Positions 115 to 48,142 of a stretch of DNA of 64,000 nt are shown here, piece after piece. This DNA is from a virus. Its lineage: Duplodnaviria; Heunggongvirae; Uroviricota; Caudoviricetes. A program made the position numbers and the translations under genes. Numbering within the stretch: the first letter of the stretch is position 1; every line of letters starts with the position of its first letter. The stretch lies in the IMG/VR virus record IMGVR_UViG_3300045988_155334; one strand, 5' to 3'. Under the pieces are notes generated by a model. That model had not been told where the DNA came from and searched no databases. It saw only the letters and a program-made list of their open reading frames with translations.

Positions 115-1974
115 TTATGCCGCCCTTACGATGTAATTAAACGCAATGTTGCGTGGGCGATTTTCATTTGCTGTTGGAACAATTTTTGAAGCATCAAGGC
201 CGATCACTTTTGGGTAAACAGCGCCGTCTGCCCTTTCAGTCACCATACTTTTGACTAAGGAGAAATAACTATTGTTTGTGGAGGGATTTAAAGGCACCAC
301 AGCCCCCTTAAACGTGCTCATTCCTTCCCATATTGAATAATTTTCAGTATTTACAGTTCTGAACTCACCATAGATATTACGTATGGCATCGCCCTGAGCT
401 GATAATATTGCTCTCCCCGCATCCACACCACGCCCATCATCCCAGCCACGGATAAATTCACCGCGTAAATCAGGCAATTTATTTGTCGGGTAAGCCTTTG
501 CCAATTCCGGGTATTCTTCAGAAGAAAATGCTGCGCCGTTACATTTCAGCCACCCCGTTGGCGGTGTGGCTGAGGGCCATGGAACAGGTACACCAACGGG
601 CAGTGCCGAGCCTTCTCCTAAACCAAGGTAATCAAGAACGCTCTGAATACTGGTCTTACCAAGAATGGCGCGTCCAACACTTGTCAATGCAGTTAACGCG
701 GCACGATCAACACCTGTGAAATAAGGGAGTTTATCTGCTGCTGTAGCTAGTGCCGCTAGAGCAGTGAGCGTAGCGTCTGCCGCTTGCTTTCCATTAGCCA
801 AATCATATGCAGCCTTGACAGCTTTCGGTGTGGCGGCCAGCACTTCGGACGTGCTATTGGTAGCACTACTGAGCTGAACTATCCCTTTTTGTGTCGTGGT
901 TGCATCCTGGGCTGTATACTTCCCGTTAGCCAGGTCGTATGCAGCCTTGACAGCTTTCGGTGTGGCGGCCAGCACTTCAGACGTGCTGTTAGTGGCACTA
1001 CTGAGCTGAGTGATGCCTTTCGCTGTCAATGAAGCTGTTGGTACACCAGTGATCTGATTCCAGGGATGTGTATGACTGGATGGTGCCTTTCCGGCTGCTA
1101 GATCGTATGCAGCTTTAACCGCTTTTGGAGTTGCAGCTAATGTTTCAGAAGTGCTGTTGGTGTCGCTACTGAGCTGAACTATCCCTTTTTGAGCCGTGGT
1201 TGCATCCTGGGCTGTATACTTCCCGTTAGCCAGGTCATATGCAGCCTTGACAGCTTTCGGTGTGGCGGCCAGCACTTCAGACGTGCTGTTAGTGGCACTA
1301 CTGAGCTGAACTAATCCCTTTTGCGTTGTGCTTGCATCCTGCGCCGTATACTTGCTTTTCGCCAGATCGTAGGCTTTTTTAACTGCCAGCGAACTCGCAG
1401 CAACATCACTTCTGGTACTGGTTACAGAGTCTGAAATATCAATGCCGATCGTGCGGTTGATACGCTCGGATGTATCAATCATCTCTTGAGTAATGGTAGA
1501 TACGCCAGCAGGGATATTCACCGTACAAACCAGCAGTTCCCCATCACCTAACTGATATGAATCGGTATAGGTTCTGGCAACAAATTCAGCTGCATGAATA
1601 TGTGACGCGGTATTCACCTGATAGGTATCTTCTCCAAGAAGGTATCTTCCCTTCAGCACAATTGCATATTTCTTGCCTGCGTTAAGTGCAAGAGAGATAT
1701 CCTTACGATGCTGAATAGTTACCTGGTAGAATTCACCAATATCCACTGACGCTGCGCCAGCGGTTTTATCTCCATCCACTGAGGTGATTAACAGGTTCAT
1801 CCCACCGCCAGGCTTAGGCAAGAAACCAGCATAAAATCCCGGGTCAACAATTCCCCTGAATTTTCGGTTTAGAGCGGCTGACAGATATGGTTCGTGGTAT
1901 TGCACATCAGACACCAGAGCCAACGACTCGGGTGATGGGTAAGTAACCGATGTAACAACTGTAACGTCATTCAT
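115..1974 (-). CDS. Tail fibre protein (S-like) with tandem phage tail-fibre repeats and tail-collar-like C-terminus
   Basis: ORF 115-2061; ATG at 1974 preceded by AGGA and 12 nt after upstream stop; 4-5 repeats of ~35-40 aa (GIVQLSSATNSTSEVLAATPKAVKAAYDLANGKYTAQDATT); C-terminal LPDLRGEFIRGWDDGRG motif. Confidence 0.8.
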   Translation of the reverse strand: MNDVTVVTSVTYPSPESLALVSDVQYHEPYLSAALNRKFRGIVDPGFYAGFLPKPGGGMNLLITSVDGDKTAGAASVDIGEFYQVTIQHRKDISLALNAGKKYAIVLKGRYLLGEDTYQVNTASHIHAAEFVARTYTDSYQLGDGELLVCTVNIPAGVSTITQEMIDTSERINRTIGIDISDSVTSTRSDVAASSLAVKKAYDLAKSKYTAQDASTTQKGLVQLSSATNSTSEVLAATPKAVKAAYDLANGKYTAQDATTAQKGIVQLSSDTNSTSETLAATPKAVKAAYDLAAGKAPSSHTHPWNQITGVPTASLTAKGITQLSSATNSTSEVLAATPKAVKAAYDLANGKYTAQDATTTQKGIVQLSSATNSTSEVLAATPKAVKAAYDLANGKQAADATLTALAALATAADKLPYFTGVDRAALTALTSVGRAILGKTSIQSVLDYLGLGEGSALPVGVPVPWPSATPPTGWLKCNGAAFSSEEYPELAKAYPTNKLPDLRGEFIRGWDDGRGVDAGRAILSAQGDAIRNIYGEFRTVNTENYSIWEGMSTFKGAVVPLNPSTNNSYFSLVKSMVTERADGAVYPKVIGLDASKIVPTANENRPRNIAFNYIVRAA

Positions 1975-1985
1975 CAAGCATATCC

Positions 1986-2420
1986 TTATGCTGTAGTCGT
2001 GTTTATGGCCATAACTGCGGTATATGTTTTGCCCACATACAGCGAGTCTTCTTGGACACAAATAATGGCGATTGGCTTATTCTCGTTATCCAGAACAACC
2101 AGAGTGTTGAATGGGTAGTTTTTCCCTTCCTGCAACTGACTTTGATCAAGGTCCATTCGGACAGTAATTATCCCGCCTGAGTAGGTTGGGACGAGGTTGA
2201 TGGTGCAAAATTGACTGGTCAGTTCTGCCAGATCGAAAGCCTTTGGCAGTTCTCCAATCTCATAATTGCCATCTCCTTTCTTAGTAACCAGTGAACTGGT
2301 ACCGAAAACGGCCTTGCTGATTAAAAATCGAGAGCCTTTGTTAATGGACGATTCAGCGCGCCGCTGATAGTAATAGTCCAACAACTGACTCTTATAGAGG
2401 TTTGTTGAGACGTCAGACAT
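1986..2420 (-). CDS. Tail fibre/baseplate-associated protein (P1 R-like by position)
   Basis: 144-aa ORF immediately upstream of the tail fibre gene in the same operon. Confidence 0.45.
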   Translation of the reverse strand: MSDVSTNLYKSQLLDYYYQRRAESSINKGSRFLISKAVFGTSSLVTKKGDGNYEIGELPKAFDLAELTSQFCTINLVPTYSGGIITVRMDLDQSQLQEGKNYPFNTLVVLDNENKPIAIICVQEDSLYVGKTYTAVMAINTTTA

Positions 2421-4768: not shown

Positions 4769-5124
4769 AGCACCACGTCCTGTGTGATAGTTATATCCCT
4801 GATACGAATGGATATTTTCAACTTATCAAAAGCATCTCCCTCGGCTACTGACAAGCCAGAAATCGGTATGTCAGGTAAATCTACCGTCAGTTTTTGCAAC
4901 AGCATTGCCTCAACCGCAATTTGAACATGCGACAAGTTGGTCGGTTCGTGTTTAAACTGCGGTAAAACATTGCCCCATGACGGATCTCCGTATACCTCAC
5001 CCTGATAAGTGTTTAGCCACTCATATAAACGAGCGCCCCAGGCCTCCTCCTGGGACTCATACGTTTTTACGCCGGATAACTCCAGCGTCAGCAAAGGATC
5101 AATTTCGTTATTGTTGGCCATCAA
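4765..5124 (-). CDS. Baseplate gpW/gp25-like protein (P1 PmgA-like)
   Basis: 119-aa ORF directly after sit, overlapping stop/start. Confidence 0.4.
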   Translation of the reverse strand: MMANNNEIDPLLTLELSGVKTYESQEEAWGARLYEWLNTYQGEVYGDPSWGNVLPQFKHEPTNLSHVQIAVEAMLLQKLTVDLPDIPISGLSVAEGDAFDKLKISIRIRDITITQDVVL

Positions 5125-8100
5125 TCAACTCTCGCGTAGTCATTCATCAACGGATCATCAATTGACAGTGGTACCGTGCGCATAACGCCCGGCTGAGGCG
5201 TGCTGACCTTTACGACAGTTCCCTGGCCTTTCGCCGAGTCTTTGGTGTGCTCTTCAATCCTGGCAAGCAATGAGGTCATCTGCGCAAACAGCCGCTTCGT
5301 TTCACCATCAAGTGAAACGGTATTATCAGCCAACTGCATTGTCGGCTTGGCACCGGAACCGCCAAGGTCACTAATAACCTGCCCGTCTATCTGCATACGA
5401 CCGGTTGGTTGCTGCAAATCGTTGGCGGCAGTCGTCACCTGGGACGTGGAGGCTGGTTCAGGCGCATTATTTTTCCGCATCCCCGGCGAGTTGCGGAGTT
5501 TATCGAATAGTCCATCAATCCCCATTTGTGCGCCGAGATGGTCAAAGTAACTTGAGTTGTTGGCCACCGGACGCGCCTCTTCAACTGGCATCGGGGTATC
5601 AACATACACATTGCCAGCTGCTGTTGCGGTCCCCTTCCCTCGTGCACGTTCTTCGAGCGTTCCCTGAACGACTTCCCGACGCATCCCCCGGCCATTCATG
5701 AATTTGTTGACCAGATCGTTAACGCCAACAGCATTGCCGATTTTGTCTACCAGACCGCCTTTCTCAAACGGGCTATCACCAGGGGTAAACGCCAGGCCAG
5801 TAGACTGATCGATAACAGCGTTATCAGGCAGTGGTCCCCTCACTCCATATTGCGCCCCACCCTGTGCTCCTGCTCCAGGTGTATAGATTTCACCACCTAA
5901 ATAGCGAGCACGATGAGTATTGACCTTGATCGCGTACTCACGGTTTTCTTTCGATAAGTCACCTGTGCCTTTTTTCCACTTATTAATAGTGCCAAACCCA
6001 GCATTATATGCAGTGATGGCCTCGTTTAAGTCTCCATTGGCTTGCTTCAGATACTTGCTCATGAGAAGAGCCGCAGCTTCTGCCGATTTCACAGGATCAA
6101 ACGATTCACCTTCAGCTAAGCCAGTCTCTTCACGAGCAATCCCCGTGAACTGAAACATCCCCAGAGCACCGGTTTGGGATTTTGCATACGGATTACCACC
6201 AGATTCAGTTGCAGCAATCGCGTAAAGAGTGCCTTCTGGAAGACCGTATTTATTCTCTAGTTCAGCAAAATACGGAGCCAACTTATCGAGATTTGCCTTA
6301 CCTTCAGCGCCAAGACTTCCGACTTTTACATCCAAGTTGCCATTGTTGTAGGTATCCGCAGCTTTCTGAATGTCATTCCTGGTACCAGTGGTATTAAGCG
6401 ACGATGATGACGAGCTATTTTGACCAATAGCTTTATCAATTTTCTGCAACGCGCTATTGCCCGTTTCTACGGCATTTGCATTGATAATCTGATTGGCAGT
6501 TTGTTTAACTGTTTTATTGCTATCTTTCGCTGTGTCCAGTGCCGCATTTATCACGCGGGTAGCAATATTACTCTGTTTGGCATCGGATTCAGTTTTAGAA
6601 TCAGACGTCTCCTGGTGGCTATTAACCGGAGCTTTTAACTCTGGAGTGATTTCTTTCGCATTAGCCTCGCCGATCGGATTGGGTATTTTTGATACAATCA
6701 TTGCCGCAGGGGTATTTTTAACGGCATCAACCGCTGCATCTAATGCTTTACCTGGTAAATTTTTAACCCCATCCCAAATATTACCAGCCGCCTCTTTAAT
6801 GTGTTTCCCTGGGTTCTTAATGAAATCAATTGCACTATCAATTGCATCACTGAAAACCTGTTTCAGGTTATCGACAGTAAAGAAGTCTTTGATGGCATCC
6901 AGCTTTTCAAGCAGCTTATTAGATGTATCGCTAAACCATGCTGAAACAGCATCACCAATCTTTGCTGTGTAATCATCGAACTTGGTAGAAATGGTGTCGC
7001 CAAGGTTAGAAATATATGTTTCTAAGTTGGTAATCCCACTATCAATGGTCTGGGCAATACTTTCCGTCGAAAATGATTGCAACATATTGCCGATATCCTC
7101 AAATCCAAGTGATTTGAGAACCTCACCAATGGCGCTGCTAATACCAGATACCAGTCCCCCCATATCAAGAACATTAGCTAACGTATAAGCGGCTTTTTGC
7201 TGGAATGATGGATCTTGTCCTGATTTAAGCCCAAACGCTCGACGTTGCGCTTCTGTATCATTCCAACCGGTTACCGCATCATAAATACCTCCAGCCACTG
7301 TGCCGACTAGGGGAATTGCGCGTAACGCCCCTTTACCAACTGCCTTTAATCCAAGTTTACCTGCTGCCCGGGCAGCCAAATCTCCGCCTTCATGGGCGAG
7401 AGTCTTCTTGCCACCACCGCGTAGCATTCCTACAAGTTTCTTTGCCCCCAGAGCGCCAAAAGCGAGTGCTCCAGCTTTTTTCAGCATGCCACGCCCCATT
7501 AACAACGACGCGACGCCACCGGCCCCCTTCCCTAACAGGCTAAATAGTTTGGACAGCAAGCCGCCCTTCCTTTTCCCGGTGTTTTTGGCTATCTGATCAA
7601 GGGCGCTGAGAATCTTGTCATTGCCCTCTTTAATTTCGCTGGTCTGCTCCTGAAGTTCCTGAACCGTCCGTTTTTGGGTGTTAACCTGAACGACATCGGC
7701 ACTATTTTGCGATTTACGCCTAAAAAAACCTTTTCTACGGCTGTTATCGTCATTGCCACGAATCACATCGGCAATAGACTTTCTGGCACCATTAAGCGAT
7801 CCACCAACTTCTTTTGATATCCCGCCAAGCTCCTTCCCTGCTGCCCACAATGGACCAGCAACGGCATAACCTAACGCATCGACGGCACGAGTCTCTGAAG
7901 GGTTACCTATGCCTTCAGCTACTTTTGACAGTTTTTTTAATAAACCTGATTCAGCATTTAGACGCTCATCATCCTCTTTGCGCCTGGCCTTTTCAGCACG
8001 TTCAGCACGGGCATCTTCCGCTGCGGCCTTACTCCCTGACTTTCCAATAAAACGACCACGCGCATCGCGTTGGTTTTGGCTTTTTTGCGCACCGCCTTTT

Positions 8101-8513
8101 TGACCGAACATTTCGCGAGCGTGTTCGGCTGCTTCGGTCCGTTGCGCCTTTACATCTTCTGTTATAGCCTTCTTGCGTCGTTTTTTACCCTTTCGCGTAG
8201 TTGATTTGGCCTGCGGTTCCTGTAGAGCAACATCCTCCTGAACTACACGAGAAACGTCCCCTAAATTAAGCCGTTTCATTGCCTCAACAATAGGGTCCAC
8301 TGATGGCGCATTGGCCACAAAGTCTGGCCGGGAATTTTCGATTGTGCGATTTAATGCCGACACACTGCGAGAGACAGGATCAACAGTTGCAACGCGCCCC
8401 CCTTTCAAATCTTCAACAGCTTCCCGGATACCTGCAAGCTCTTCCAGCTCTTTTGCGCTGGCGGTTTCAACTGTCCTTATAACATCGTCAATGTTGGCGT
8501 TTTTTCTTTCCAT
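5121..8513 (-). CDS. sit: Sit: tape-measure-like injected protein with soluble lytic transglycosylase domain
   Basis: 1130-aa ORF; SLT motifs ...AIAATESGGNPYAKSQTGALGMFQF...AYNAG...; long low-complexity Gly/Lys/Ala-rich N-terminal half. Confidence 0.85.
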   Translation of the reverse strand: MERKNANIDDVIRTVETASAKELEELAGIREAVEDLKGGRVATVDPVSRSVSALNRTIENSRPDFVANAPSVDPIVEAMKRLNLGDVSRVVQEDVALQEPQAKSTTRKGKKRRKKAITEDVKAQRTEAAEHAREMFGQKGGAQKSQNQRDARGRFIGKSGSKAAAEDARAERAEKARRKEDDERLNAESGLLKKLSKVAEGIGNPSETRAVDALGYAVAGPLWAAGKELGGISKEVGGSLNGARKSIADVIRGNDDNSRRKGFFRRKSQNSADVVQVNTQKRTVQELQEQTSEIKEGNDKILSALDQIAKNTGKRKGGLLSKLFSLLGKGAGGVASLLMGRGMLKKAGALAFGALGAKKLVGMLRGGGKKTLAHEGGDLAARAAGKLGLKAVGKGALRAIPLVGTVAGGIYDAVTGWNDTEAQRRAFGLKSGQDPSFQQKAAYTLANVLDMGGLVSGISSAIGEVLKSLGFEDIGNMLQSFSTESIAQTIDSGITNLETYISNLGDTISTKFDDYTAKIGDAVSAWFSDTSNKLLEKLDAIKDFFTVDNLKQVFSDAIDSAIDFIKNPGKHIKEAAGNIWDGVKNLPGKALDAAVDAVKNTPAAMIVSKIPNPIGEANAKEITPELKAPVNSHQETSDSKTESDAKQSNIATRVINAALDTAKDSNKTVKQTANQIINANAVETGNSALQKIDKAIGQNSSSSSSLNTTGTRNDIQKAADTYNNGNLDVKVGSLGAEGKANLDKLAPYFAELENKYGLPEGTLYAIAATESGGNPYAKSQTGALGMFQFTGIAREETGLAEGESFDPVKSAEAAALLMSKYLKQANGDLNEAITAYNAGFGTINKWKKGTGDLSKENREYAIKVNTHRARYLGGEIYTPGAGAQGGAQYGVRGPLPDNAVIDQSTGLAFTPGDSPFEKGGLVDKIGNAVGVNDLVNKFMNGRGMRREVVQGTLEERARGKGTATAAGNVYVDTPMPVEEARPVANNSSYFDHLGAQMGIDGLFDKLRNSPGMRKNNAPEPASTSQVTTAANDLQQPTGRMQIDGQVISDLGGSGAKPTMQLADNTVSLDGETKRLFAQMTSLLARIEEHTKDSAKGQGTVVKVSTPQPGVMRTVPLSIDDPLMNDYARVD

Positions 8514-10112: not shown

Positions 10113-10730
<618 letters not shown>

Positions 10731-10737
10731 TGACAGG

Positions 10738-11214
10738 TCATTTTGCGCGCTTTAGGCAGCCATCTTCAGGTGCCGCGTTGAAAAGCTCTGCGGCCTTACG
10801 TAGCGTAAATGTTGCGATTTTTTTTCCGTCTACGTATGCATCGAATGTTTTAACTTCCATATCAGGGGTATCTGACCAAAAACCATACCAGTAACTATCA
10901 CCCACAGAGGAACCGATAGAACTGATAGGATATTCATCATCACCAACTTTCAGCGTTATTTGTTCTTTTTTAGCATCAAATGACTCACCGCCAGGTTCTG
11001 TTTTCATGAGAGTGAGTAGTCGTGTTCCTACTTGATTGGGATCCGTATTATTAAATCCAACATCGCACTCAAATGTAAGCGTATAATTATCTTTGCTGGA
11101 AACAGCATAAGAACGAACACCATGAGTCTCGCCGGTTGACCATTTGCTTACATTTGCCATTGATGAAAACGGAGTAAGCAAAGCAAGAATTAGAAAATAT
11201 AGTTTAATGCGCAT
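10738..11214 (-). CDS. Secreted protein with N-terminal signal peptide (superimmunity-like locus)
   Basis: 158 aa; MRIKLYFLILALLTPFSSMA signal peptide. Confidence 0.5.
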   Translation of the reverse strand: MRIKLYFLILALLTPFSSMANVSKWSTGETHGVRSYAVSSKDNYTLTFECDVGFNNTDPNQVGTRLLTLMKTEPGGESFDAKKEQITLKVGDDEYPISSIGSSVGDSYWYGFWSDTPDMEVKTFDAYVDGKKIATFTLRKAAELFNAAPEDGCLKRAK

Positions 11215-11265
11215 TAATTTATCTCCTTTGGATATTAATATTTTAATTAGTTAACCACCATATAT

Positions 11266-11913
11266 TCACCATTCATAGGGTAAATTAAGCGCTTTTAAAC
11301 CTTGCTGGAAAGTATTAAGAGAGCCATTTTTTTGTTGTTCCATTTTTTCGCGTGCAGCTTTCTCATACTGCTCCATCCGTTGGTTATACTCTTGCAATTC
11401 CTCCGGGGAGAGGTTTCCCATTGGGGAGTTTGTACCCGGCCCCCTGGCCCGTTCTTCAAGCGTACCCTGAACGTTTTGATGGCGCATTCCCGGGGCGTTT
11501 CTGATTGAATCAATGCCATTTCTTCCAACGTCTTCTTTATTAACAGCATTGCTCGCCACCAGTACGCCCCAGCTAGGGATAGCAAAATCAGGAGCGGTTT
11601 CGCATGCCTTTACCATATAATCGAAAGAGCTTCGATTAATCTCGTTTGCGTCGGGATTTAATAGGCGAGAATATTGATATTTAGCATTTTCGTTGGTTGC
11701 GACTTTATACAGTTCTTGCTGCACCATCGCTTCAGAAAGTTTAAGGCGTTTCATATCTGACAGTAACTTCTTGCGCATGGATTCGTCTTGACTGACAGCA
11801 AAGCCGTAAACGTGCCCAAGGTATTTCGTATAATCGGTACAAATCTCCTTTACACTTGATGCTGCATTAACAGTCCCAGCCATAAATAATAACGGTAGTA
11901 ATAGTTTTCTCAT
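11266..11913 (-). CDS. Secreted protein with signal peptide that shares a motif with the Sit C-terminus (SimC-like)
   Basis: ORF 11266-11940; likely start ATG 11913 with GGTGAGG ribosome-binding site; MRKLLLPLLFMAGTVNA signal; GMRHQNVQGTLEERARGPGT matches Sit GMRREVVQGTLEERARGKGT. Confidence 0.5.
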   Translation of the reverse strand: MRKLLLPLLFMAGTVNAASSVKEICTDYTKYLGHVYGFAVSQDESMRKKLLSDMKRLKLSEAMVQQELYKVATNENAKYQYSRLLNPDANEINRSSFDYMVKACETAPDFAIPSWGVLVASNAVNKEDVGRNGIDSIRNAPGMRHQNVQGTLEERARGPGTNSPMGNLSPEELQEYNQRMEQYEKAAREKMEQQKNGSLNTFQQGLKALNLPYEW

Positions 11914-12009
11914 TATAACCTCACCTGCCTTATAACTCATTTAGGGTACATATTTTCGCCTTTAAAAAAAAGAGGTTATTAGATCCATTTGTGTGTTTAT
12001 TATACAATT

Positions 12010-12026
12010 AATGCTCTAATAAATTT
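12010..12026 (+). promoter_or_regulatory. C1 repressor operator (Op51-like) overlapping a promoter
   Basis: AATGCTCTAATAAATTT, 16/17 match to the P1 operator consensus ATTGCTCTAATAAATTT as recalled. Confidence 0.6.
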
Positions 12027-12204
12027 GTATTTTTAAGTCACGAATGCTATCTTTTCGCATCATATTGACCTTTTAATCGTTCAGGCTTATAGTTCCGCCG
12101 TCGTAGCAAATTCTGCGACCGGGTTTAGCAGCCTGAATGATTGTGCGGACAGCCGCAGATATCCGATATTGCGGTATTTTTGTGTCCGTAAAACCGCGTT
12201 ACGC

Positions 12205-47416: not shown

Positions 47417-48142
47417 ATGAAAGGCGAAGTGAAAGAGCGCGGCATGATTTTCAACGATGAGATGGTCCGGGCCATCCTCGAAGGAAGGAAAACGCAGACG
47501 CGGCGGATAATGAAAAATCAGCCTGCGGAAGTTGGTCCAGAAGCACCAGTGATGGTTAGAAAAATTGGTGCAGGTTTTCAGTGGTACGGGGCTGATGGTG
47601 TAAGCAGTGTTTTCAATTGCCCCTTTGGTATCGTCGGCGATCGAATTTGGGTTCGTGAAACATGGGCGATATTAGGCAATGAGGATGGTTGCAGTGTGGA
47701 CTGGAACGACAACCTTTGTCGTGGCGATGAGAAGAACGCAGCAAGGATTTATCGGGCCAGTTGCGAGCAAAAACCTGGTGATTACGGCTTATGGTCGATA
47801 CCCGATGATGCCGACTGGAAACCTCACACTGTGAATGAAAAGTTTGATGGTGGGTGGCGTCCATCAATTCACATGCCGCGATGGGCATCACGCATCCTGT
47901 TGGAAATTACCAACGTGCGCGTTGAGCGGTTGAACGATATCAGCGAATGCGATGCAAGGGATGAGGGCGTTCCGCCTGCTGGAAGTTTGCTTCCTGATCA
48001 CCCGGGAACATTCCTTACTCCCAAGGGGGATTTCGCAATGGCCAAGGTTGCGTTCCAGCGCCTGTGGGAATCCATCTACGGCGAAGAAAGCTGGAGTGCT
48101 AATCCCTGGGTTTGGGTAATCGAGTTTGAGCGTATTCAGTAG
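47417..48142 (+). CDS. ASCH-domain (PUA-like) protein
   Basis: 241 aa; FNDEMVRAILEGRKTQTRR N-terminal signature. Confidence 0.5.
   Translation: MKGEVKERGMIFNDEMVRAILEGRKTQTRRIMKNQPAEVGPEAPVMVRKIGAGFQWYGADGVSSVFNCPFGIVGDRIWVRETWAILGNEDGCSVDWNDNLCRGDEKNAARIYRASCEQKPGDYGLWSIPDDADWKPHTVNEKFDGGWRPSIHMPRWASRILLEITNVRVERLNDISECDARDEGVPPAGSLLPDHPGTFLTPKGDFAMAKVAFQRLWESIYGEESWSANPWVWVIEFERIQ

Follow-up and report, generated by a model that had tools for sequence, protein, structure and literature searches.

The sim slot of P1-like phages holds exchangeable genes next to the immunity region. Here we analysed a stretch of DNA of 64,000 nucleotides (hereafter, the window) from the IMG/VR virus record IMGVR_UViG_3300045988_155334, which is a P1-like phage (Punavirus) with its genes in the same order as in P1, and describe two genes for apparently secreted proteins in this slot. 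One encodes a protein of 215 amino acids, which we name SimA-long, and the other a protein of 158 amino acids that is assigned to the YfjT family. SimA-long contains a peptide of around 35 residues that is also present in the C-terminal region of Sit, the tape-measure protein of the phage, and this peptide is conserved in both proteins.

A two-gene cassette in the sim slot

From the tail-fibre end of the window, the genes run through sit, pmgB, tub and pmgC (10113–10679, minus strand) to the genes for the 158- and 215-amino-acid proteins, followed by the c4/icd/ant immunity region on the plus strand. The two genes therefore occupy the slot of simC–simB–simA in P1, between pmgC/LPsit and c4–icd–ant, in agreement with the initial annotation, which had placed them at the superimmunity locus. 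The slot corresponds to variable region 4 of P1-like phage-plasmids (PMC9603915) and is dispensable in P1 (PMC10695390). The sim gene of P1 confers superinfection exclusion, according to the passage of PMC9177967 that cites Kliem and Dreiseikelmann 1989.

Across positions 10600–12100, only Escherichia phage vB_EcoM-Ro157c2YLVW matches the window from end to end (98% identity); the matches of P1, P7 and other relatives are restricted to the two flanks. Homology to P1 and P7 stops at 10736 on the left and returns at around 11774–11805 on the right. The replaceable cassette extends from 10737 to approximately 11800; its flanks and its leader and promoter region are common to P1, and its content is not. 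The features of the locus and of sit are listed in Table 1.

Table 1 Features of the sim-slot cassette and of sit in the window
Feature	Position	Strand	Basis
sit, tape-measure/injection protein; SLT lytic transglycosylase domain at residues 748–857	5121..8513	-	Pfam SLT, E 9e-27; phrog_2533 over the full length
Sit copy 2, partial internal repeat, IDGLFDKLRNSPGMRKNN	5457..5516	-	tblastn, E 0.01
Sit copy 1, residues 932–969, NDLVNKFMNGRGMRREVVQGTLEERARGKGTATAAGNV	5607..5720	-	BLASTP; Sit alignment
Late promoter LPsit, marking the left edge of the cassette	10711..10729	-	Homology to the P1 annotation
Second secreted protein, 158 amino acids, YfjT family (PF27224, phrog_3429)	10738..11214	-	Open reading frame; phrog_3429, E 8e-80
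simA-long, secreted protein of 215 amino acids (phrog_3933)	11266..11913	-	Open reading frame; phrog_3933 over the full length, E 4e-137; homology to P1 simA
Variable C-terminal tail of SimA-long, residues 170–208, a long predicted helix here	11290..11406	-	AlphaFold2
Sit-like peptide of SimA-long, residues 131–168, RNGIDSIRNAPGMRHQNVQGTLEERARGPGTNSPMGNL	11410..11523	-	BLASTP; PHROG; family alignment
Helical domain of SimA-long, residues ~20–130, with invariant C25 and C104	11524..11856	-	AlphaFold2; family alignment
Sec signal peptide of SimA-long, MRKLLLPLLFMAGTVNA followed by A	11863..11913	-	Sole hydrophobic stretch; -3/-1 rule obeyed
5' leader and promoter region; predicted PsimA; adjoins the C1 operator Oc4 and the divergent c4 promoters	11914..12110	-	Nearly base for base as in the P1 sim operon

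SimA-long matches its PHROG family along its whole length (residues 1–215 against profile positions 1–213), and its relatives carry the database label ‘SimA domain protein’. The start at 11913 is preceded at 5 nucleotides by a Shine–Dalgarno sequence, AGGTGAGG, and homologues begin at the equivalent methionine; an alternative upstream ATG at 11940 would give a protein of 224 amino acids. Identity to P1 simA is about 95–100% in the first ~37 residues and in the upstream region, and a tblastn comparison with P1 SimA gave 85% identity over residues 1–48. P1 SimA (52 amino acids, MSYKAGEVIMRKLLLPLLFMAGTVNAASSVKEICTDYTKYLGHVYAFAINDY) is equivalent to the N terminus of the 215-residue reading frame: starting at the c4-proximal end, the two DNA sequences align with hardly a mismatch across the leader and the first ~37 codons, and the match breaks off at around 11805. 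The start of P1 simB, ATGCGTAGGAG, lines up with an in-frame sequence of simA-long, ATGCGCAAGAAG, which points to recombination within a short homologous segment. P1 ‘SimA’ is thus a stub left by cassette replacement, and the full-length gene is the one in the window. The cassette junction falls at about codons 37–46 (window ~11795–11810; positions 47904–47912 of P1, our locus L001).

The cassette is an alternative to simB–simC. In BLASTP comparisons with SimB and SimC, neither SimA-long nor the 158-residue protein gave a match better than E of about 1. The description of SimA-long as a superimmunity-locus protein is thus accurate for its location; it does not extend to a relationship with SimB or SimC, which are the proteins tied to the Sim phenotype.

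Both reading frames and their apparent secretion, as annotated initially, were recovered. The predicted signal peptidase site of SimA-long is of the AXA type, between VNA and A, with N16 and A17 invariant in the family, and the signal peptide would be cleaved there. Given that there is no cysteine at +1, SimA-long is not a lipoprotein. Nor did a search for a membrane anchor find one: no run of 19 residues in the protein exceeds a Kyte–Doolittle value of 1.6, there is no lipobox cysteine, and the signal peptide is the only hydrophobic stretch. The 158-residue protein has a signal peptide (cleavage between SMA and N), no lipobox, no further hydrophobic segment and two invariant cysteines, and its gene has an AAGGAG Shine–Dalgarno sequence. 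Its assignment to the YfjT family rests on PF27224 matches precomputed for a 98%-identical representative (P0047), for all 16 relatives and for neighbours in related loci; our local copy of Pfam, which is probably older than the model, gave no hit. A literature search on the function of the YfjT family returned nothing. The E. coli K-12 gene yfjT presumably lies in a cryptic prophage.

An AlphaFold2 model of SimA-long, built from an alignment of 17 sequences, is all-helical at residues 20–130, with predicted local distance difference test (pLDDT) values above 90. Its two invariant cysteines, C25 and C104, would fit a periplasmic disulfide. The Sit-like peptide (about residues 139–165 in the model) has pLDDT values below 50, and the tail is modelled with moderate confidence as one long helix. 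Other lineages have cysteine-containing modules in place of this tail or lack it (the 163-residue variant and P0041, the most divergent member of the family).

Sequence-profile searches against the PDB returned nothing for either the SimA-long or the 158-residue family. Neither cassette protein matched the profiles of the lysozyme inhibitors Ivy, MliC/PliC or PliG in Pfam or among PDB sequences, and PADLOC returned no families for either protein at E ≤ 0.1. A match of SimA-long residues 24–109 (window 11524–11856) to PTP-like phytase (PF14566) scored 26.6 bits against a gathering threshold of 27 and was rejected, as the defining features of that family, including the catalytic C-x5-R loop, are lacking. 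The same match is precomputed for close homologues in a large protein collection; it looks spurious and could spread into annotations.

The PsimA promoter exists only as a prediction in the P1 record, and a simple consensus promoter scan upstream of simA-long did not recover it. At 11999–12007 (minus strand), upstream of simA-long, the window has TTGTATAAT, which resembles an extended -10 element; the equivalent position of P1 has TTGTTTAAT, annotated as the -35 element of the predicted PsimA. This sequence difference might alter expression of the cassette.

A peptide shared by SimA-long and Sit

The initial annotation proposed a motif common to the 215-residue protein and the C-terminal region of Sit, and this is confirmed. 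In BLASTP comparisons, SimA-long residues 122–168 align to residues 927–969 of Sit (1,130 amino acids) with 49% identity and an E value of 6e-9. Independent PHROG profiles of the two families each hit the other protein in this region: phrog_3933 matches Sit residues 929–970 (E 4.6e-6) and phrog_2533 matches SimA-long residues 129–171 (E 8e-8). When a 42-residue segment of SimA-long was searched by tblastn against all six frames of the window, Sit gave the only match (copy 1, E 3e-9; copy 2, E 0.01), and noise set in at E 0.25. The aligned copies are GIDSIRNAPGMRHQNVQGTLEERARGPGTNSPMGN in SimA-long (11410–11523), NDLVNKFMNGRGMRREVVQGTLEERARGKGTATAAGN in Sit copy 1 (5607–5720) and IDGLFDKLRNSPGMRKNN in Sit copy 2 (5457–5516), close to the positions first annotated. 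The shared peptide is around 35 residues long, and the second copy in Sit is shorter.

A separate similarity at the DNA level, which had also been annotated, is not borne out. The SimA-long peptide and Sit copy 1 are 58% identical over 114 nucleotides, and codons are shared at just 7 of the 19 identical residues. The protein match is thus enough to account for the likeness of the two DNA segments, which do not form a repeat in their own right.

Sit is the tape-measure protein of P1, supplies the muralytic activity associated with the tail and is unresolved in reconstructions from cryogenic electron microscopy (PMC9024508, PMC12810830). The peptide lies outside the SLT domain, about 75 residues past it. 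Copy 1 was found in all P1-like Sit proteins examined (from E. coli, Salmonella, Klebsiella and Cronobacter lineages) and is among the most conserved blocks of the C terminus; in the Sit alignment, G-M-R, G, R-A, G and G are invariant. In a model of the last 400 residues of Sit, built from an alignment of 7 sequences, the SLT domain alone is confident and the peptide region has pLDDT values below 50.

Copy 2 lies in an insertion of about 45–65 residues (window 5400–5600, Sit residues ~972–1038) that is present in Sit of the E. coli lineage and absent from Sit of Salmonella, Klebsiella and Cronobacter. On sequence, copy 2 looks like a partial internal duplication. At least two alleles of the insertion occur, FDKLRNSPGMRKNN and YDKLINARGMRSNN. 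Within the E. coli lineage, the last 230 residues of Sit are nearly invariant, and the only variable spot is a local peak of diversity at copy 2 (pi of 0.095, compared with about 0 at copy 1). The peak is suggestive of pressure on that site and does not amount to a test. The SLT region of Sit is itself mosaic (window ~5826–6446, residues ~690–896; pi of about 0.3) among E. coli P1-like elements that are otherwise nearly identical, and occurs as two alternative domain alleles, exemplified by GTINKWKKGTGDLSK and IAAYHAGMGHVDK.

Across the SimA-long family, the core of the peptide, N-x-x-G-M-R-x-Q, is invariant or nearly so, and the helical domain is also conserved. Several forms are found downstream of the core: a QGTLEERARG-G-T extension, as in the window, cysteine-containing modules, or nothing. 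The 163-residue variant stops directly after the full peptide, as does P0041 (NAPGMRHQAVKGSMAERARGDGT), which indicates that the conserved unit consists of the signal peptide, the helical domain and the peptide.

Selection on the peptide and distribution of cassette types

Between lineages, the proportion of synonymous differences (pS) in the peptide is 0.7–1.0, and thus saturated, and the proportion of non-synonymous differences (pN) is 0.2–0.4 in SimA-long and 0.07–0.3 in Sit. For the SimA-long peptide, pN/pS is 0.2–0.57, with this saturated pS as the denominator. SimA-long and Sit of the same genome differ in the peptide with a pS of 0.68–0.81. The saturation of synonymous sites implies that the similarity is at least as old as the divergence of the lineages, and these sequence comparisons indicate that purifying selection maintains the peptide in both genes. 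The low nucleotide identity, the different codons and the within-genome pS rule out a recent exchange of DNA, or recent gene conversion, between sit and simA-long.

When 1.84 billion representative proteins were searched exhaustively with a profile (E ≤ 0.001), 11 matches were obtained, all to the SimA-long family; at this database size, the 35-residue motif alone cannot reach significance. A word-indexed search found 28 homologue clusters, which come from E. coli, Salmonella and Klebsiella and in many cases from contigs of ~90 kb. Within the phage collection, the C-terminal part of Sit beyond the SLT domain occurs in P1-like phages only. Both searches point to SimA-long and the Sit C terminus being specific to the P1 clade. 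The N-terminal stretch is present on 267 plasmids in PLSDB. The match covers at least 80% of the query in 84 of these and is essentially full length; others have residues 1–161 (the 163-residue variant), and the majority have only the P1-type stub (residues 1–48).

In 14 of the 15 locus types that we reconstructed, the gene that follows simA-long is YfjT-like; in the exception, L050, it is paired with a SimC-like gene. Further genes are found in the slot of other P1-like elements (L003, 9704–11662; L005, 9581–11258; L007, 10768–11121) and encode a protein of 116–119 amino acids with predicted membrane segments and a protein of 325–394 amino acids with a C-terminal SH3 domain. Every protein encoded by the cassettes of this locus is either secreted or a membrane protein. 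Compared with the virion proteins of the window, no shared sequence was found for SimB, SimC, the SH3 protein, the small membrane protein or the YfjT-like protein. SimA and Sit fragments also occur in short contigs labelled as Paenibacillus or Bacillota metagenome-assembled genomes and as Bacillus altitudinis (L082, L083 and P0038). These are most likely to be contamination or mis-binned phage-plasmid DNA from Enterobacteriaceae.

Two further sequence features lie outside the cassette. A perfect 11-bp inverted repeat at 10687–10721 (CTCGTAGAATC and GATTCTACGAG) overlaps the -10 element of LPsit and the pmgC leader and is kept in P1 and P7; with no T-run after it, it is not a typical terminator. 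A tail-fibre-like open reading frame (115–2061, minus strand) contains several tandem copies of a ~37-residue repeat (YTAQDA.T.QKG.VQLSS.TNSTSE.LAATPKAVKAAYDLA).

A possible role in superinfection exclusion

We tentatively propose that the cassette interferes with Sit-dependent injection by superinfecting relatives through mimicry, that is, by competing for a putative partner of the shared peptide. The two genes would form a prophage-expressed, periplasmic two-protein cassette in the simB–simC slot. SimA-long would be exported by Sec, and its helical domain, probably disulfide-bonded, would carry the flexible Sit-like peptide. During P1-like injection, the part of Sit beyond the SLT domain may enter the periplasm first, where the resident peptide would occupy, or compete for, the envelope target of the Sit peptide, which could belong to the host or be a further virion protein that is ejected. 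Cell-wall passage or channel formation by an incoming relative would then fail, and its DNA would stay out. The YfjT-like partner probably acts together with SimA-long. A more specific version, in which SimA-long displays the Sit motif of its own prophage in the periplasm and competitively blocks genome injection by related phages, is conceivable but doubtful.

The mimicry proposal is consistent with the data because of the locus, the secretion signals, purifying selection on the peptide, the predicted disorder in both proteins and the restriction to the P1 clade. The peptide falls in low-confidence, probably disordered regions of SimA-long and Sit, as linear motifs that fold upon binding typically do. 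The cassette is presumably expressed in the lysogen, and its products are probably periplasmic.

The cassette resembles P1 simA–simB–simC in its slot, upstream region and first ~37 codons, in the signal peptides on all of its products, and in occupying a site that is non-essential and variable. It differs in content: SimC is annotated as conferring superimmunity, and neither SimB nor SimC has a peptide in common with Sit. Known exclusion proteins directed at tape-measure proteins include T4 Imm (bioRxiv 10.64898/2026.03.06.709160) and, in the summary that appears in PMC10883804, HK97 gp15 and TP-J34 Ltp. As is proposed for SimA-long, these phage-encoded envelope proteins block genome entry at the tape-measure step. 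They bind the tape-measure protein as membrane proteins or lipoproteins and are not reported to copy it, whereas SimA-long, a predicted soluble protein of the periplasm, has sequence in common with its presumed target and no likeness to them in sequence or fold. In T4, Imm binds gp29 and Sp (spackle) inhibits the gp5 lysozyme. T4 Sp, Ivy and MliC/PliC are periplasmic proteins that neutralise a muralytic enzyme; Sit carries the muralytic domain of P1, but the cassette proteins match none of these families and the shared peptide lies outside the SLT domain. We found no case of exclusion by mimicry of a tape-measure peptide in the literature searched, and no mention of full-length SimA or of its similarity to Sit, although the latter is a weak negative because older P1 papers and the P1 genome paper were outside the coverage.

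Several points weigh against mimicry. We infer, rather than observe, the exclusion activity, the mode of competition and the role of the partner protein. SimA-long is unrelated to SimC, and the phenotype of the P1 locus is therefore not transferable to it by homology. No defence family in PADLOC, Pfam or NCBIfam was matched, and the helical domain, for which searches of structure and sequence gave no informative relative, offers no functional clue. Disorder of the peptide region is weakly supported, given the shallow alignments (17 and 7 sequences) behind the two models. Some members of the family have only the N-x-x-G-M-R-x-Q core and lack the QGTLEERARG half of the peptide.

The pairing of SimA-long with the Sit of its own genome gives no further help. 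Comparisons of identity matrices between SimA peptides and their cognate Sit proteins showed no significant cognate effect, with 12 of 120 and 1,284 of 5,040 permutations reaching the observed value. The SimA peptide of the window is nearer to Klebsiella/Salmonella-type Sit (23 of 34 residues) than to its own Sit (19 of 34), and NAP-type SimA is also found paired with the NAR-type of Sit copy 2. Early hints of co-evolution (P or R at -1 of GMR, and EERARG in both proteins of the window) failed the permutations, and mixed combinations exist. A decoy would be compatible with the missing covariation provided that the partner of the peptide is a conserved component of the host or the virion; one possible line of support is nevertheless lost.

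Three other explanations were weighed. The peptide could be a shared utility module that has no link to Sit as a target, such as an element for targeting the peptidoglycan or membrane of the envelope or a protease site, with the cassette serving the lysogen in another way (envelope modification, defence against unrelated phages or host fitness). The absence of cognate covariation would fit a conserved generic partner, the second gene is assigned to the YfjT family and some SimA variants retain the short core only. A generic module would be odd, however, in just two families of the P1 clade, with the proviso that a 35-residue motif falls below significance in billion-sequence searches, and the gene sits in the P1 exclusion slot under the same upstream region. 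We regard this explanation as possible, with the balance of evidence tilted against it. A P1 head protease site was also considered as the source of the motif, and the paper on that protease offered nothing relevant.

SimA-long might instead capture or poison Sit directly, either because the shared segment self-associates or because the helical domain binds the peptide, with its own copy as a pseudo-ligand, and so block the transglycosylase or channel step, in the manner of T4 Imm or Sp. The genomic context and conservation that speak for a decoy serve this explanation equally; known exclusion proteins bind tape-measure proteins directly, and the peptide lies some 75 residues past the SLT domain. 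In single-chain AlphaFold2 models, however, the peptide docks neither on the helical domain of SimA-long nor on the SLT domain of Sit, the cognate covariation that fast-evolving binding partners might show is missing, and there is no likeness to known lysozyme or transglycosylase inhibitors. Direct capture is accordingly unlikely. Least probable is that the peptide is the relic of a single capture of a sit fragment by a moron gene, and is now functionless: phage genomes are mosaic, the sim slot is a recombination hot spot and P1 itself has a truncated simA, but this is contradicted by the selection data, with an invariant core among members that are 45–65% identical overall and the low pN/pS at saturated synonymous sites, by the retention of the full peptide in P0041, and by truncated variants that stop after the peptide and not before it.

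To our knowledge, no host entry factor for P1 beyond lipopolysaccharide has been established, and the question of how P1 superimmunity works dates back to the 1980s. The shared peptide provides a handle on both the superimmunity and the passage of P1 DNA across the periplasm and inner membrane, and the ~35-residue element of Sit is a target for mutation and a bait for a partner. If the mimicry proposal is correct, exclusion would be based on copying a part of the injection machinery, and not on receptor masking or on binding of the tape-measure protein, and Sit would contain a functional peptide with an envelope partner that is needed for entry of P1 DNA. P1-like phage-plasmids spread resistance genes among Enterobacteriaceae, and the type of sim cassette that an element carries could influence which elements enter a cell that already holds one.

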